Virus record (IMG/VR): IMGVR_UViG_3300020042_005675
Coordinates: 1-29,673 of that record
DNA: 29,673 bases
Source: a virus
Lineage: Duplodnaviria > Caudoviricetes
Direction: 5' to 3' (one strand)
Shown: one piece after another, positions 3,273-12,712 of the stretch
Layout of the letters: each line of letters starts with the position of its first letter
How positions within the stretch are numbered: the stretch's first letter is position 1
Notes under the pieces: generated by a model
What the model was told of the DNA's origin: nothing
The model's database searches: none
What the model saw: the letters and a program-made list of their open reading frames with translations, nothing else
Made by a program: the position numbers and the translations under genes

Positions 3273-3625
3273 GGTTTTTTCCTTAATGTCCAAACATTTT
3301 CTGCTTTAGTTTCCCACAGCAACTCGTCGCCAGTTTTCCAACCAGTTTTTTCTAATATTTCTTCGTTAAGCGGAAGTATTAAGTCTTCACCATCTTGTTC
3401 AAGATCAATTACCCAACGACTATTAGCCATTTCTTTTTTACTGCTATATCCACTCATAATATTACCTTTACCCATATCAAAAGCAACACGTAACCATTTT
3501 TCACAAAATTCATTGCGCTCCTGTTGTGTCTCGGCTAACTCTAGGTGTTGAAAGAAGCGTTCTGATCTAAAACTAAATCCTTCTAGTTCTTCAAACCAGT
3601 CTTCAAATGTTTCGTATTCTACCAT
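3269..3625 (-). CDS. Two-part protein with C-terminal AbrB/MazE/SpoVT-like domain
   Basis: DLILPLNEEILEKTGWKTGDELLW is an AbrB-like signature. Confidence 0.6.
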   Translation of the reverse strand: MVEYETFEDWFEELEGFSFRSERFFQHLELAETQQERNEFCEKWLRVAFDMGKGNIMSGYSSKKEMANSRWVIDLEQDGEDLILPLNEEILEKTGWKTGDELLWETKAENVWTLRKKP

Positions 3626-6447: not shown

Positions 6448-6648
6448 ATGTCAACTCAACCAAATTATACAGCAGAACTAGAAGCCCTCATATTAGACGT
6501 GCTGCTGCCAGTATATGAACAACATTGTCGTCAGCGAGGTATTGCTTCCTTACGAAATGAAATTAATCCTGAGTTGCTGAAACAATTAAAGAAAAAGAAA
6601 ACAATTCCCCGACTATTTATGCCTAAACTTAAAGATAATCATGCCTAA
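6448..6648 (+). CDS. Phage hypothetical protein
   Basis: GGAG SD; first gene after the promoter. Confidence 0.75.
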   Translation: MSTQPNYTAELEALILDVLLPVYEQHCRQRGIASLRNEINPELLKQLKKKKTIPRLFMPKLKDNHA

Positions 6649-7057
6649 ACAAGAAACAATTACCCTTACCGATCTTGATACAGGTGATACAATGTATATT
6701 GCCGCTAAAGAACAGATTGAATTAAAAACAATTGTAGGTACTATGCCTACAGGCACAGCACTTAAGTTTGATGATGGTAAATTACCCTTTCACTTATTAA
6801 GTACTGAAGCAATGAACCAAACTGCAGCAGTATTAGCATTTGGTGCAGAAAAGTATGCAGAACACAACTGGCGTAAAGGCTTTGTGTGGAGCAGACCCTT
6901 AAGCGCAGCAATGCGTCATATTACCGCGTTTAATGCGGGAGAAGACAAAGACCCTGAGTCTGGACTGTCGCACTTAGCTCATGCAGCTTGTTGTATTATG
7001 TTCTTGCTCGAATTTGAAAAGACTCATAAAGAGCTAGATGATAGATATAAGCCCTAA
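6641..7057 (+). CDS. dATP/dGTP diphosphohydrolase domain protein (DUF5664-like)
   Basis: KFDDGK..LL, FGAEKY..HNWRKG, AAMRH, GEDKDPESGLSHLAHAACCIMFL. Confidence 0.85.
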   Translation: MPKQETITLTDLDTGDTMYIAAKEQIELKTIVGTMPTGTALKFDDGKLPFHLLSTEAMNQTAAVLAFGAEKYAEHNWRKGFVWSRPLSAAMRHITAFNAGEDKDPESGLSHLAHAACCIMFLLEFEKTHKELDDRYKP

Positions 7058-7331: not shown

Positions 7332-8330
7332 ATGTTCAATCAAAATATTAATCGCATTGGCTTTGCCTGCAAAGTTCAGATTTCAGAGTCAAAAGCTGAC
7401 CCTAAACTGAATCAGTCAGGCACGACTATTAAGTGGCTAAGCTCACAAACACCCGATCGGGCTCGTGAACGTTTATGGGATTTGATGCGTGCTAATGTTC
7501 AAGCATTGTCGGGTCAGATTGAATGGTTAGGCAAGCAGCCACCAGAGCTGCGTATGTTCAGAATTACTTCAGATTTGCTGACCGCATATACTCATGACGA
7601 CTATATAGCTTTTTACTTTGAGCCTGACGTAGTCCAATTCCTAGAGTCTAATCTAAGCAAAATAGGTACTCGTGCCCGAGAACTAGACATTCGTCTCTCA
7701 TTTCACCCAGGTCAGTTCTGCGTGCTTGCTAGTGAACAAGATCATGTTATTGAAAACTCAATCACAGAATTTGAGTATCATTGCGACTTAATACGCTACA
7801 TGGGCTACGGCAAAAAGTTTCAAGACTTTAAATGCAATGTACACATTGGTGGTAGACGCGGTCCTGACGGCATCAAAGCCGCACTAAAACGTTTGTCACC
7901 AGAAGCACGTAACTGCTTAACCATCGAAAACGCAGAGTTTACATGGGGTTTAGATCACTCGCTAGAATTAGTAGACCACTGTGCACTTGTGCTTGACATT
8001 CATCACCACTGGATTCATTCAGGCGAATACATTACACCTTGTGACGATAAGTTCAAACGTGTTGTCGACTCATGGCGTGGTGTTAGACCAACAATGCACT
8101 ACTCAGTATCTCGTGAAGATGTACTCATCGACCATGATCCTTATATTCGCCCAGACTTTCAACAACTAAAAGCAAGTGGATTTACTTCAGCAAAACTTCG
8201 TGCACATTCAGAATTCTACTGGAACAAAGCAGTAAATAAGTGGGCACTAAGCTTTAATCCACACGCAGATATAATGTGCGAATCAAAACAGAAAAACACA
8301 GCATCACAAGAACTATATGAACAAATTTGA
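7332..8330 (+). CDS. uvsE: UV damage endonuclease (UVDE)
   Basis: RIGFAC, MFRITSD, RLSFHPGQF, NVHIGG, LTIEN, VLDIHHH, HYS, RAHS, DIMCESKQKN. Confidence 0.9.
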   Translation: MFNQNINRIGFACKVQISESKADPKLNQSGTTIKWLSSQTPDRARERLWDLMRANVQALSGQIEWLGKQPPELRMFRITSDLLTAYTHDDYIAFYFEPDVVQFLESNLSKIGTRARELDIRLSFHPGQFCVLASEQDHVIENSITEFEYHCDLIRYMGYGKKFQDFKCNVHIGGRRGPDGIKAALKRLSPEARNCLTIENAEFTWGLDHSLELVDHCALVLDIHHHWIHSGEYITPCDDKFKRVVDSWRGVRPTMHYSVSREDVLIDHDPYIRPDFQQLKASGFTSAKLRAHSEFYWNKAVNKWALSFNPHADIMCESKQKNTASQELYEQI

Positions 8331-9019: not shown

Positions 9020-9246
9020 AAATAAAAGACTTAATTGCAGAATTGCAAAAACACGATCCCGAAATGCAAGCTATTCGTGCTGGATACGAAGGCGGAGTTG
9101 AGTTTGTTTCAAGTGTTAAGTGTTTCGAAGTTGCACTAGACGTTAATTTAGACTGGTGGTATGGCAAACATGAAATACTACTGCACGACCTGCAACGTGA
9201 AGAGTTGCGCGATTATACTAAAACACAAGCGGTATTAGTATCATGA
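9016..9246 (+). CDS. Phage hypothetical protein
   Basis: ATGA coupling; MKIKDLIAELQKHDPEM-type N-terminus is common in phages. Confidence 0.75.
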   Translation: MKIKDLIAELQKHDPEMQAIRAGYEGGVEFVSSVKCFEVALDVNLDWWYGKHEILLHDLQREELRDYTKTQAVLVS

Positions 9247-9362
9247 AAAAATTACCAAAAATGCGTAACCGAATAGTTATGCATATGATTAAGCGTAAGT
9301 GTGGGGCGCATAAAAAGACTCACAAACAACTACGCGGCAAATTAAATCGCAATTTAGAATAA
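9243..9362 (+). CDS. Small highly basic protein (39 aa)
   Basis: MKKLPKMRNRIVMHMIKRKCGAHKKTHKQLRGKLNRNLE; ATGA-coupled; below the ORF track cutoff. Confidence 0.65.
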   Translation: MKKLPKMRNRIVMHMIKRKCGAHKKTHKQLRGKLNRNLE

Positions 9363-9463
9363 CCACTCGGGTTTAAGGAAACCAGAAAACTATCCTTACA
9401 GCAATTCAAGCAGGGCTGTGTAAATATTTCTTGAATTTTTTCACACACAACACAAGGAATTTT

Positions 9464-9682
9464 ATGTTCACACCCGATTTTTATATTGATTTATTTCAAT
9501 CCTCAAAGCGTCAGTTTACTAACCAAGTTTACCAAGACGAAACACTCAACAAAGCCTGCAATGCTTTCATTGACGCACAAACAACGTTTGCTAAAATGAT
9601 GGCTAAAAATTATGTTGATTTGTCAACATACAGCGCGGACACAATGAGCAAAGTATTTTTTCCACAAAAGGACTCAAAATGA
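9464..9682 (+). CDS. Hypothetical amphipathic helical protein (phasin-like, tentative)
   Basis: AAGGA SD with AC-rich leader; FIDAQTTFAK motif. Confidence 0.65.
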   Translation: MFTPDFYIDLFQSSKRQFTNQVYQDETLNKACNAFIDAQTTFAKMMAKNYVDLSTYSADTMSKVFFPQKDSK

Positions 9683-9906
9683 ATCCTTTTGAACTTCGTG
9701 CACAAATGTTAAGCATGGCTCAAGATTACTTGCAGCAGCAACAACAAATTAACTTAGATTTTGCTGGTCGCACTTTTGAACAACTTGTAAAAGAAGGTAA
9801 AAAAGTAGCAGAAGACTGGCAACAGTATGCTCCTAAAATGCACTCATTAGAAGATGTAGTAAAAGAAGCAAACAAGTTATACGGGTTTGTTAAAGATACT
9901 AAGTAA
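9679..9906 (+). CDS. Phage hypothetical protein
   Basis: MNPFELR...A.KLYGFV; ATGA coupling. Confidence 0.75.
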   Translation: MNPFELRAQMLSMAQDYLQQQQQINLDFAGRTFEQLVKEGKKVAEDWQQYAPKMHSLEDVVKEANKLYGFVKDTK

Positions 9907-9914
9907 TTTAATAC

Positions 9915-9985
9915 CGCGGTGAGTCAGGGTAAGGGCAAGCCTCATAAGCTCAGCCCAGAAGGTTCGAGTCCTTCCGCCGCAACCA
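9915..9985 (+). tRNA. Atypical tRNA-like gene, anticodon CAT, initiator-like C1:A72, no D-stem
   Basis: Acceptor CGCGGTG/CGCCGCA, ACCA end, perfect T-arm GAAGG-TTCGAGT-CCTTC, loop CTCATAA; only 71 nt. Confidence 0.7.
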
Positions 9986-10013
9986 AACATGGGCTAAATG
10001 CCTGTCCTAAACC

Positions 10014-10060
10014 AAGGTTTAGGTTTGCCAAGCCAGGTAAACCTAAGCCTTTATTTATTT
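10014..10060 (+). terminator. 16-bp hairpin with T-rich tail (terminator or processing stem)
   Basis: AAGGTTTAGGTTTGCC / GGTAAACCTAAGCCTT with two G-U pairs, followed by TATTTATTT. Confidence 0.6.
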
Positions 10061-10066
10061 ATACAT

Positions 10067-10405
10067 ATGAAATTATTAGAACACTTAAGAGTTATTTATT
10101 ATACATATACTACTTTAGTGTATCAACTACTTTGTATGTTTTTAGCAACACTATGCTTGGCTATGTATATGTTAACACAATTTAATTATGGATACATGGA
10201 AGCATATAAAGCACAGATTGATATGTTACGACAGCGAACAGAAGGTCAGTCAAAGCAACTAATTGTATTAGAAGAACGATATAATAAACAGCAACAAGAG
10301 TTTAATGCTTTTAAAAGTAGAACAGTTGCAGTAGAAACTAATTTGCAATATGAAGTTCAACAACTTAAATCTCCCCAAAAATCAATAACACATTTAAAGA
10401 GGTAA
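10067..10405 (+). CDS. Membrane-anchored coiled-coil protein
   Basis: Hydrophobic LVYQLLCMFLATLCLAMYML followed by heptads; start 10067 is tentative. Confidence 0.65.
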   Translation: MKLLEHLRVIYYTYTTLVYQLLCMFLATLCLAMYMLTQFNYGYMEAYKAQIDMLRQRTEGQSKQLIVLEERYNKQQQEFNAFKSRTVAVETNLQYEVQQLKSPQKSITHLKR

Positions 10406-10406
10406 T

Positions 10407-10595
10407 ATGTCAGACGGAGGAAAAGGTTCAAAGCCAAGACCTATTAAGGTATCAAATCAAGAATACGAACTACGGTGGGATGCAATATTTGCTGTTCCTA
10501 TTGATAGCGAAACAGATAAACCTACTCGTAACAACGAAGAAACTCAACAAGTTCAAAATATTAAAGTTGACAATTCTGGTAAAAGTTTGTTATAA
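10407..10595 (+). CDS. Small conserved phage protein
   Basis: GAGG SD; MSDGGKGS.PRP...WDAIF motif recurrent in aquatic phages. Confidence 0.7.
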   Translation: MSDGGKGSKPRPIKVSNQEYELRWDAIFAVPIDSETDKPTRNNEETQQVQNIKVDNSGKSLL

Positions 10596-10596
10596 T
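10567..10596 (+). promoter_or_regulatory. Promoter TTGACA-18-TATAAT with extended -10 TG, likely driving the tRNA cluster
   Basis: Both hexamers are exact consensus. Confidence 0.75.
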
Positions 10597-10615
10597 TATT
10601 CTTTAAGGATAATCT

Positions 10616-10819
10616 ATGAACTCAAAACCATTAATGATTATGCCTGCTTACGGCAGACAGTATAAAACTAGCGAACAAGCTAAAACTGACTGGAACGCTG
10701 GAAAAGATTTCAAAATTGTCAATGGACCATACCTTAGTATACGAGATGTTAATTATATTAAAGATACTTATAGTTCTGTATGGATTGACTTAATTACACT
10801 TGTAGTTAGAGTAGCGTAA
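10616..10819 (+). CDS. Phage hypothetical protein
   Basis: AAGGA SD; PAYGR.YK...DWNAGKDF motif. Confidence 0.7.
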   Translation: MNSKPLMIMPAYGRQYKTSEQAKTDWNAGKDFKIVNGPYLSIRDVNYIKDTYSSVWIDLITLVVRVA

Positions 10820-10824
10820 ACAAA

Positions 10825-10908
10825 GCGAGTATGGGGGAATCGGTAGACCCAGCAGACTTAAAATCTGCCGCGTAATGCGTATCGGTTCGATTCCGATTAC
10901 TCGTACCA
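10825..10908 (+). tRNA. tRNA-Leu(TAA)
   Basis: Cloverleaf, GCAGA-CTTAAAA-TCTGC, long variable arm, CCA. Confidence 0.95.
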
Positions 10909-10914
10909 AACAAT

Positions 10915-10990
10915 ATCTCGTTCGTCTAGAGGCCTAGGACACCACCCTTTCACGGTGACTACACCAGTTCGAATCTGGTACGAGATACCA
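10915..10990 (+). tRNA. tRNA-Glu(TTC)
   Basis: ATCTCGT/ACGAGAT acceptor, CTTTCAC loop, TTCGAAT, CCA. Confidence 0.93.
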
Positions 10991-10995
10991 ATTTA

Positions 10996-11070
10996 GGTCT
11001 TAAAGTGTTCACGGACGCACACAGCACTGTCACTGCTGTAGATGGGGATCGTTACCCCATGAGACCGCCA
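10996..11070 (+). tRNA. tRNA-Asp(GTC) with non-canonical core
   Basis: CAGCA-CTGTCAC-TGCTG, G73, CCA; T-loop reads ATCGTTA. Confidence 0.88.
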
Positions 11071-11075
11071 ATTAT

Positions 11076-11151
11076 GCAGTTGTTAGTGTAACGGTTAACA
11101 CCACGGATTGTGATTCCGTTAATATGGGTTCGATCCCCATACTTCTGCCCA
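11076..11151 (+). tRNA. tRNA-His(GTG)
   Basis: Encoded G-1:C73, ACGGA-TTGTGAT-TCCGT, CCA; two T-T mismatches in the acceptor stem. Confidence 0.85.
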
Positions 11152-11158
11152 AAATTAT

Positions 11159-11236
11159 AGTGTGATGGCAGAGTGGTCTAATGCAACGGATTGCAAATCC
11201 GTAAAGTCGTCGGTTCAAATCCGACTCACACTTCCA
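11159..11236 (+). tRNA. tRNA-Cys(GCA)
   Basis: AGTGTGA/TCACACT, T73, TTGCAAA loop, CCA. Confidence 0.93.
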
Positions 11237-11255
11237 CTTAATTAAAGAAACATAA

Positions 11256-11846
11256 ATGATAGACGAAACAAAAATTACATTAGGTAAACAGTATTTTACT
11301 AAAAATACATCAAACGTATATGAATTCTATCTGTCAGGCGAAATTGAAGATGCTAGTGAGTATAGCGAATGGTTTGATATTATTCGCAATGCACGACTAG
11401 GCGATGTAGTTAAAATTTACATTAATAGTTGCGGAGGCGATTTATATACGGCTCTGCAATTTTTGCGTGTGTTATCAGAAAGTTCGGCTCATGTAATTAC
11501 ATCAGTTGAAGGTGCTTGTATGAGTGCTGCAACAATGATCTTTTTGCATGGTGATGAGTTTGAAGTAACCCCGCACTCACTTTTTATGTTTCATAATTAT
11601 AGTGCAGGTGTGTTTGGTAAAGGCGGAGAAATGTTTGACCAACTTCAGTTTGAACGTAGTTGGTCAGAAAACTTCTTACGAGATGTATACCACGACTTTT
11701 TAACACCAGATGAAATTAAATCAATGTTGGACAACAAAGACATCTGGCTTACATCAGAGCAGGTATTAGCACGAATTGATTTAGTATTAGCTAAAGTAAC
11801 TGCAGAGCAGGAATTAAATGAAGAATCTGTGGAGACTGTGGAGTAA
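11256..11846 (+). CDS. clpP: ClpP-like protease proteolytic subunit
   Basis: YLSGEI, IYINSCGG, GACMSAAT (catalytic Ser), FMFH (His), DIWLT. Confidence 0.85.
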   Translation: MIDETKITLGKQYFTKNTSNVYEFYLSGEIEDASEYSEWFDIIRNARLGDVVKIYINSCGGDLYTALQFLRVLSESSAHVITSVEGACMSAATMIFLHGDEFEVTPHSLFMFHNYSAGVFGKGGEMFDQLQFERSWSENFLRDVYHDFLTPDEIKSMLDNKDIWLTSEQVLARIDLVLAKVTAEQELNEESVETVE

Positions 11847-11975
11847 AGCACTAGGTGAAAAAAGTGGCAGCACTGATTGTGAAGCTAACAAAATAGCTTT
11901 AATTCGTACACTAATCGTGCTTTGTTACATTGTTACAAATTTATTTATAATAGCAGGCGTTATAAGGCAATGGTA

Positions 11976-12236
11976 ATGGCTAAAACATTTGGTAATTTAA
12001 AATCTAATAAATTAGATATGTTGGACAAATTAACAATCGGCAAGTTTGCTGGTTGTAGAATATGTGACATTATAGCAGATGATTTTGAATATCTTATTTG
12101 GTTAAACAAGCAAGGATTTGTAAACTTTACAACGCCTGTTATGACTGATCTGCTTGCAAGAGCAGGCTTTAAAGAAGCTGAAGAAAACTACAAGAATGAA
12201 GTTGAACCATGGGAGGGTGAAGATGTACCCCTTTGA
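11976..12236 (+). CDS. Small protein with ExoX C-terminal/DUF3820-like motif
   Basis: LTIGKFAGCRICDII..DFEYLIWL matches GK..G..I......YL.W. Confidence 0.6.
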   Translation: MAKTFGNLKSNKLDMLDKLTIGKFAGCRICDIIADDFEYLIWLNKQGFVNFTTPVMTDLLARAGFKEAEENYKNEVEPWEGEDVPL

Positions 12237-12327
12237 TTATTCAAATCTAAATATAAAAGAAGTCCTTATCTGGTCTATTGACAAACATGGATTTGTTGAA
12301 GTAGAAAAGATAACACTAGAAACATAA
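12223..12327 (+). CDS. Putative 34 aa peptide
   Basis: GGAGG SD; MYPFDYSNLNIKEVLIWSIDKHGFVEVEKITLET; stop abuts tRNA-Gly. Confidence 0.45.
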   Translation: MYPFDYSNLNIKEVLIWSIDKHGFVEVEKITLET

Positions 12328-12401
12328 GCGGGATTGGTATAGGGGTTGTGCCCTAGTCTTCCAAACTAGAGAGATCAGTTCGAGCCTGATATCCCGCTCC
12401 A
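12328..12401 (+). tRNA. tRNA-Gly(TCC)
   Basis: GCGGGAT/ATCCCGC, CTAGT-CTTCCAA-ACTAG, T73, CCA. Confidence 0.93.
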
Positions 12402-12413
12402 TTTTTTCGAGTC

Positions 12414-12489
<76 letters not shown>

Positions 12490-12500
12490 TGAAACATAAA

Positions 12501-12590
12501 TTTATACCTGATCCATTATTACATAAGCGCAATTTTATACCTGACCCATTATTAAAAGATAAACGTAAGTTTATTCTTGACAAACCCTTA
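12501..12590 (+). repeat. Direct repeat TTTATACCTGAYCCATTATTA x2 plus a degenerate third copy
   Basis: Copies start at 12501, 12534 and 12570 (periods 33 and 36). Confidence 0.8.
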
Positions 12591-12604
12591 CATCAAAAAC
12601 AACC

Positions 12605-12633
12605 AACCCCAGCTTAAGCTGGGTTTTTTGTTT
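12605..12633 (+). terminator. Intrinsic terminator ending the tRNA region
   Basis: CCCAGC-TTAA-GCTGGG followed by TTTTTTGTTT. Confidence 0.85.
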
Positions 12634-12646
12634 GTAAAAAACATAC

Positions 12647-12675
12647 TTGAACTATTGTACTAATTTTGATATAAT
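12647..12675 (+). promoter_or_regulatory. Sigma70-type promoter TTGAAC-17-TATAAT
   Basis: Consensus match directly after the terminator. Confidence 0.8.
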
Positions 12676-12712
12676 ACAAGTTCTGAAGAAAACTTTAACA
12701 CAAGGAAACACA

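Follow-up and report, generated by a model that had tools for sequence, protein, structure and literature searches.

Can a tRNA that lacks a D-stem start protein synthesis on bacterial ribosomes? The question is raised by a 71-nt tRNA-like gene with a CAU anticodon, found in a 29.7-kb virus record (Caudoviricetes) that was analyzed over its whole length and is referred to below as the window (features are collected in Table 1). The original prediction described a 71-nt element with C1:A72, an intact T arm and CCA, but without U8 and with an 11-nt unpaired D region, and the sequence at 9915-9985 agrees with it on every point. Position 8 is A instead of U and the acceptor stem carries the C1.A72 mismatch on top of six pairs; a 7-bp acceptor, a 5-bp T-stem with a T-psi-C loop and NCCA are present as in canonical tRNAs, while U8, the D-stem and a 5-bp anticodon stem are absent. 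The loop-proximal part of the anticodon stem reads A29-U41/G30-C40/C31-G39. A pattern describing this anatomy matches once in the window and not at all in 500 shuffled windows. ARAGORN calls no tRNA at 9915-9985, and with relaxed settings its sole output there is a spurious Leu(aag) cloverleaf (9912-9985), which was rejected. The Rfam tRNA model (RF00005) gives 18.2 bits, under the 29-bit cut-off; the covariance model built from the family described below gives 92.4 bits, with the window copy part of that model by construction.

Table 1 Features of the tRNA-like gene and its surroundings in the window
Feature	Position	Strand	Basis
D-stem-less CAU tRNA gene, 71 nt, encoded CCA	9915..9985	+	sequence, family covariation
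Acceptor stem, 5' strand (C1, G2, C3, G4, G5), pairs with 9975-9981	9915..9921	+	sequence
D-replacement loop, 11 nt, family motif A-N-U-C-A-G-G-N-N-A-N	9922..9932	+	motif scan; no conserved stem
Extended anticodon arm: 4 bp, 1x2 internal loop, 3 bp, 7-nt loop	9933..9956	+	covariation
Anticodon CAU in 7-nt loop	9943..9945	+	sequence
T arm, 5 bp and 7-nt loop	9958..9974	+	all five pairs with double changes, 100% of cells paired (76-member alignment)
Acceptor 3' strand, A73 discriminator (9982), CCA (9983-9985)	9975..9985	+	sequence
75-aa ORF adjoining upstream, function unassigned; synteny marker	9679..9906	+	phrog_18733, E = 1.6e-4
Intrinsic-terminator-like hairpin, 16 pairs, 28 nt 3' of CCA	10014..10051	+	consensus match
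Sigma-70-type promoter, 12/12 match, ahead of canonical tRNA cluster	10567-10596	+	consensus match
Canonical tRNA cluster Leu(UAA), Glu, Asp, His, Cys	10825..11236	+	ARAGORN; promoter 5' of cluster
Second CAU tRNA, canonical cloverleaf, G1-C72, hence not initiator	12414..12489	+	ARAGORN, Rfam

The window also holds a replication block (split NAD ligase, D5-like regulator, DnaB, polymerase, helicase, SbcCD and resolvase), whose gene order we take to resemble that of T5, and seven canonical tRNA genes according to ARAGORN; the second CAU tRNA is presumably Ile2-like. Only 8 nt separate the 75-aa ORF from the 71-nt gene. A Phasin_2 match in that ORF lies far below cut-off. Terminator consensus matches number one in the window, against 1.8 expected in shuffles. 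Several other features were recorded along the way: a C.A pair at the top of the anticodon stem of tRNA-Glu (10915-10990), an acceptor with two mismatches in the Rfam register in tRNA-His (11077-11151), and genes for a UvdE UV-damage endonuclease (7332-8330), a dATP/dGTP pyrophosphohydrolase-like enzyme (6641-7057) and, inside the tRNA region, a ClpP-like protease (11256-11846). Fourteen lake RNA-library runs hold at least half of the words of window positions 9200-12700. The bin with the 71-nt gene is covered by contigs in all four of the runs compared and depth drops in the next bin past the hairpin, although assembled contigs cannot reveal transcription, strand, ends or mature tRNA. The bins of two small ORFs upstream (9431-9906) have high contig depth in four RNA libraries, contigs making a ranking impossible.

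The window copy belongs to a family. Sequence pattern scans of viral and metagenome contigs followed by a stem filter, the totals of which are lower bounds, returned at least 97 distinct sequences, comprising at least 94 with CAU and three chance matches without CCA; a few further genuine members failed the filter, and a loosened scan gave no new member among the matches listed. The family thus comprises at least 94 distinct sequences from at least 253 loci, or at least 144 distinct contexts after repeats are merged. When the anticodon was left free, CAU was present in all well-formed member loci (at least 42, among the matches listed). The motif of the D-replacement loop is imposed by most search patterns; it was present in 30 of the 39 well-formed matches listed from a scan without it. 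Two family copies are broken (L646:285-333 and L623:271-330; locus numbers are those of this analysis), one lacking the T arm and one the 3' acceptor strand. Other tRNA genes are present in 227 of the 253 carrier loci, ARAGORN flags the member position in five (one of these being a touching neighbor gene), and among 48 neighboring proteins from 17 carrier loci none is shared conspicuously.

The carriers are freshwater phages, represented by uncultured viral and metagenome contigs and by the cultured Limnohabitans phage DC31, which was the only carrier found by blastn of 50,697 named phage records. Its copy is unannotated and lies between tRNA-Pro and tRNA-Tyr; the DC31 paper lists six tRNA genes and places the phage near Pakpunavirus (PMC12195039; papers are cited here and below for the excerpts of their text that were available), and the carriers therefore include at least two kinds of phage. 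A pattern scan of GTDB with one genome per species gave seven matches, none tRNA-shaped and none a family member, and a model search of 121 sampled GTDB genomes, with only 41 candidates scored per genome and without a positive control, gave none at E ≤ 1e-8, a result of little weight. The 75-aa ORF is found in ten viral contigs. In nine of these a D-stem-less gene lies at the syntenic position, and one such gene is identical to the window copy. In the tenth (L009) the corresponding position, flanked by the shared ORF upstream and the shared sequence downstream, is taken by an initiator-type tRNA of 76 nt whose D-stem is short (3385-3460). The picture that would have undermined the original prediction, of relatives with a normal cloverleaf and a decayed copy here, is thus not what the syntenic relatives present.

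The fold was examined in a gap-free alignment of the 76 members that are 71 nt long and have CCA in register, from which 21 sequences were left out (18 length or register variants and the three chance matches); mean identity is 77%, the lowest 56%, and the effective number of sequences about 24. With the structure of Table 1, 92.6% of cells are paired, compared with 74.3 ± 0.6 in shuffles, and the covariation score is 0.467, compared with 0.126 in shuffles (0 of 500 as high) and at most 0.096 in slid controls. Within the extended helix, pair 20:41 is complementary in all 76 members, with five pair types and 30 double changes, and pair 21:40 likewise in all 76, with 11 double changes; pair 22:39 is formed in 70, and the looser pairs 23:38 and 19:42 (the outer one) in 49 and 42, respectively. 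In many members a single pair and a 1-nt bulge replace the 1x2 internal loop. By mutual information the extended-helix pairs rank alongside those of the T-stem, and RNAalifold, run unaided on the alignment, returns the same three helices. Neither covariation nor RNAalifold detects a conserved D-stem across the 76 members. A 3-bp D-stem can be drawn in the window copy (positions 9-11 with 20-22); it is retained in 14 of the 76, competes with the covarying helix and was rejected. The former 3' strand of the D-stem pairs with the former variable loop, and the anticodon helix thereby becomes a single long, bulged one. Compensatory changes maintain it as firmly as the T-stem, in line with the original argument that clean pairing speaks against decay.

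The accompanying proposal that the extended arm "folds best" holds for the isolated arm and the family consensus, but not for the full-length window copy, for which ViennaRNA favors an alternative pairing by 0.5 kcal/mol (pair probability 0.65 versus 0.31 for the extended helix). Because the single copy slightly favors this other pairing, the extended fold rests on the family, although single-sequence folding, too, favors the extended helix in only 24 of the 76 members. The number of drawable pairs was dropped as evidence, since 70 of 108 canonical-length phage initiators also allow at least seven in a bulged anticodon helix; hence covariation alone was used for the fold. The same comparison suggests that pairing between the D-stem 3' strand and the variable loop is latent in ordinary initiators and becomes dominant when the 5' strand disappears. 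Loop columns 9 and 18 also covary, which may only mirror a split into two clades; no tertiary pair is claimed for them. Within the T arm, the normally invariant G53-C61 (alignment columns 48 and 56) is U-A in 20 members, C-G in two and A-U in two, and three further members have A54 with U58 in the T-loop where U54 with A58 is usual (loci noted: L594, L609, L613 and L307).

Every well-formed member carries CAU, CCA and initiator acceptor pairs. CAU, the MetRS element, is present in all 76 aligned members, a count imposed by most search patterns. The formyltransferase elements comprise a weak 1:72 pair, G2-C71, C3-G70, G4-C69 and A73, and also U8 and the R11:Y24 pair (PMC9976931). Position 1:72, whose columns were free in the patterns, is CA in 37 members, UA in 22, AU in ten, UU in six and AA in one, and never G:C or C:G; the discriminator is A73 in 58 and U73 in 17. 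The three acceptor pairs are present in the window copy, their 5' side imposed by the patterns and their 3' side free yet matching. U8 and R11:Y24 are absent from the family, which has no conserved D-stem. As A-U or U-A occupies 1:72 in 10 and 22 members, exclusion from elongation may be leaky.

In the anticodon stem, the original prediction stressed the missing run of three G-C pairs (29-31:39-41), and these are indeed absent from the window copy; GGG/CCC occurs in one of the 76 aligned members and in two members overall (L499 and L551). Its absence is, however, no special mark of this gene. The family consensus A-U/G-C/U.G (59 of 76, with G30-C40 in 74) is the stem of T5 tRNAfMet, and GGG/CCC is found in none of 29 other initiator-like tRNAs located beside an elongator-Met anchor, the stem having played no part in their selection. 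An au/GC/gu stem sustains growth of E. coli, G30 being the crucial base (PMC5389676). For these reasons the lost pairs neither distinguish the gene nor rule out initiation. The window's own A-U/G-C/C-G stem is estimated to occur in about 920 viral stretches, nearly all of them, among the matches listed, ordinary cloverleaves.

Genomic context points the same way. The D-stem-less gene sits in the initiator slot: L009 has an initiator with a D-stem at the position that the gene takes in the window, tRNA-Pro precedes the gene in DC31 just as it precedes tRNAfM in T5, and the complete DC31 genome has a single further CAU tRNA, with G1-C72. With CAU tRNAs classed by a motif rule, the at least 144 contexts contain 41 elongator-type, 18 Ile2-like and at least four canonical initiator genes. 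Because a canonical initiator lies nearby in these four or more, the D-stem-less gene is not always a replacement, and yet it seldom co-occurs with a second initiator. Among 103 clusters anchored on an elongator-Met gene, seven have the D-stem-less gene, 29 another initiator-like gene, none both and 67 neither (p = 0.07 for mutual exclusion, calculated for the 53 clusters with long flanks). Among large clusters, a second initiator is present in 3 of 30 carriers versus 20 of 46 non-carriers (p = 0.002, a value inflated by kinship and flank limits); these Fisher tests count related phages as independent and compare sets from different searches. CAU, the weak 1:72, the acceptor pairs, G30-C40 and the slot together back the initiator-type identity that had been predicted.

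We therefore favor, at a probability of roughly 0.6, the reading that the gene encodes a working D-stem-less phage initiator tRNA(fMet), which would be charged and formylated by host enzymes and start phage proteins. An unlikely but serious competitor is a decoy or mimic of tRNAfMet that does not translate, its target being a host anticodon nuclease, acetyltransferase or sensor that it would absorb or inhibit, or MetRS or IF2, which it would sequester. Loss of U8 and the D-stem would suit such a role, as would the contexts in which a canonical initiator coexists, and a decoy would need the CAU loop and acceptor end equally. It should, however, mimic its host target, yet GGG/CCC is gone in 75 of the 76 aligned members; moreover, the gene tends to replace rather than accompany the ordinary initiator, and it retains G30-C40 and all translation-relevant distances. 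Use of the charged tRNA-Met in elongation, or in both initiation and elongation, appears improbable. The weak Watson-Crick 1:72 pair in 32 of the 76 members would permit it and EF-Tu accepts a D-arm-less tRNA (PMC11551756), but 37 members, the window copy included, have C1.A72, and elongator-type CAU tRNAs are encoded separately in the contexts counted above.

RNase P reads the acceptor/T arm, and a tRNA-like signal for processing or stability (an RNase P or 3' trimming site) would fit the position of the gene as the last element ahead of the terminator-like hairpin in the window; a Y-RNA-like partner of a phage Ro60 would fit the Ro60-like gene in 4 of 17 protein-scanned carrier loci. These four assignments derive from matches to phrog_850 ("RNA-binding protein") at most 4 kb away in L498, L325, L340 and L458; TROVE was confirmed for L340 only, and L325 instead matched DUF7788/DUF2828. 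Either role is quite improbable, as the invariant CAU loop, G30-C40 and formylase determinants would be superfluous to a processing signal, most members lie among other tRNA genes, and Rfam gives no match to Y RNA or tmRNA. That the gene is a decayed pseudogene of an ordinary initiator is very hard to sustain: the sub-threshold Rfam score and the existence of decayed family copies could be read in this way, but covariation contradicts it, with at least 94 distinct sequences, down to 56% identity, in which length is fixed and each of the three helices shows compensatory changes. The chance that the gene encodes a lysidine-modified tRNA-Ile2 for AUA is close to negligible. CAU with A37-A38 is compatible with it, but the isoleucine determinants C4-G69, U12-G23 and C29-G41 (PMC9976931) are unmet in the window copy, which has G4-C69, no D-stem and A29-U41, and the window has a separate Ile2-like gene, as do other carriers.

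For the favored reading, a phage initiator, the mechanism would run as follows. The RNA would be processed, methionylated and formylated by the host and then used for phage translation starts. The extended helix would largely make up for the height lost with the D-stem/anticodon stack, and the invariant GG of the loop, as the equivalent of G18-G19, could dock on the intact T-loop to form an L-like elbow. MetRS would read CAU, formyltransferase the weak 1:72 pair with G2-C71/C3-G70/G4-C69, and G30-C40 would license the P site. Acceptance by MetRS, Fmt, IF2 and the ribosome is the step that we infer; it is plausible because E. coli ribosomes, EF-Tu and HisRS accept an engineered D-arm-less tRNA, with a pnp mutation required in vivo (PMC11551756).

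The benefit is the weakest step of the proposal. Initiation might continue when host defenses destroy or modify host tRNAfMet, the remodeled body evading enzymes that read its shape. Substitution of phage tRNAs for host tRNAs that defenses have cut has been proposed or demonstrated (PMC10264068, PMC12409363, PMC11555353), and Shigella phages tend to avoid tRNA-fMet (PMC10264068). Resistance to tRNAfMet-cleaving toxins such as VapC was among the suggestions of the original prediction. VapC cleaves in the anticodon stem-loop (PMC8522696), and could thus bear on the stem changes common to ordinary phage initiators, but this gives no reason for loss of the D-stem, to which nothing links VapC. Relaxed selection with structural compensation may account for that loss as well as evasion of defense would.

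Other phage initiators with reduced D arms were also observed. Seven loci (L686, L689, L693, L711, L724, L732 and L763) form a second initiator-like CAU group that lacks U8, has a mini D hairpin (3 bp, 4-nt loop) and shares the extended anticodon helix of 3 bp/bulge/4 bp. The initiator-like tRNAs at L009:3385-3460, L691 and L704 have a D-stem of 3 bp, could form a bulged anticodon helix of 7 bp, and are possible intermediates. Short CAU tRNAs with differing D regions and long anticodon helices occur in L094, L103, L107, L229, L267, L292, L290, L233, L305 and L307. D-arm reduction in phage initiators may thus be wider than the D-stem-less family, and shrinkage may have arisen several times.

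Among known RNAs, the tRNA-like domain of tmRNA and the bacterial Y RNAs combine an acceptor and T arm with a D-loop-like GG, tmRNA without a D-stem; neither has a CAU anticodon loop. Mitochondrial tRNA-Ser(AGY) also has a lengthened anticodon stem. T5 tRNAfMet (tRNAfM, AY692264) shares the weak 1:72, G2-C71, C3-G70, G4-C69, G5-C68, the CAU loop and the encoded CCA, but has U8, a full D arm and 78 nt, and scores 34 bits on the family model versus 67-92 for members. Bacterial tRNAfMet, including natural au/GC/gu variants (PMC5389676), shares the acceptor determinants, CAU and G30-C40, but is a cloverleaf with U8, a D-stem and R11:Y24. The type III mitochondrial tRNA-Ser(AGY) likewise has an unpaired connector in place of the D arm (PMC7609411; PMC11551756), but this is a serine elongator with a 5-nt connector, a reshaped T arm and co-evolved machinery, whereas in the phage gene the loop is 11 nt long and contains GG, the T-loop is canonical, the identity is that of an initiator and the host is bacterial. 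The engineered E. coli mini HisT (PMC11551756) is also D-arm-less and used by bacterial ribosomes, but is artificial, 62 nt long, an elongator without a compensating helix and dependent on the pnp mutation. Failing canonical tRNAfMet on the D-stem and the three G-C pairs while carrying the other initiator marks, the D-stem-less gene is a structurally new form.

In the text available, a 2024 paper describes all known bacterial tRNAs as cloverleaves and natural arm-less tRNAs as confined to mitochondria (PMC11551756), and a review of D-arm-less tRNAs likewise treats them as mitochondria-only, the word "phage" being absent from that text (PMC7609411). Our literature search, with most subscription journals and supplements outside its reach, found no description of a D-stem-less phage initiator family. 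On a broader reading, to which we give slightly better than even odds, this would be the first tRNA in nature to lack a D arm and yet work on bacterial ribosomes, as well as the first initiator without that arm. Several kinds of phage would have rebuilt tRNAfMet by pairing the variable loop with the D-stem strand, and the family would be one end of a D-arm-shrunken series missed by annotation tools, with escape from tRNAfMet-attacking host enzymes as the probable selective force.

Inventories of phage tRNAs are incomplete, as neither ARAGORN nor Rfam picks up the gene. The gene is carried by a cultured pair, DC31 and Limnohabitans, and its role is therefore directly testable. It may serve as a naturally minimal scaffold on which to engineer initiators, and may help to reveal which tRNA surfaces are read by host defenses. 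If the favored reading is true, a conserved D-stem-less phage initiator would overturn the cloverleaf-only rule for the most tightly checked of all tRNAs.
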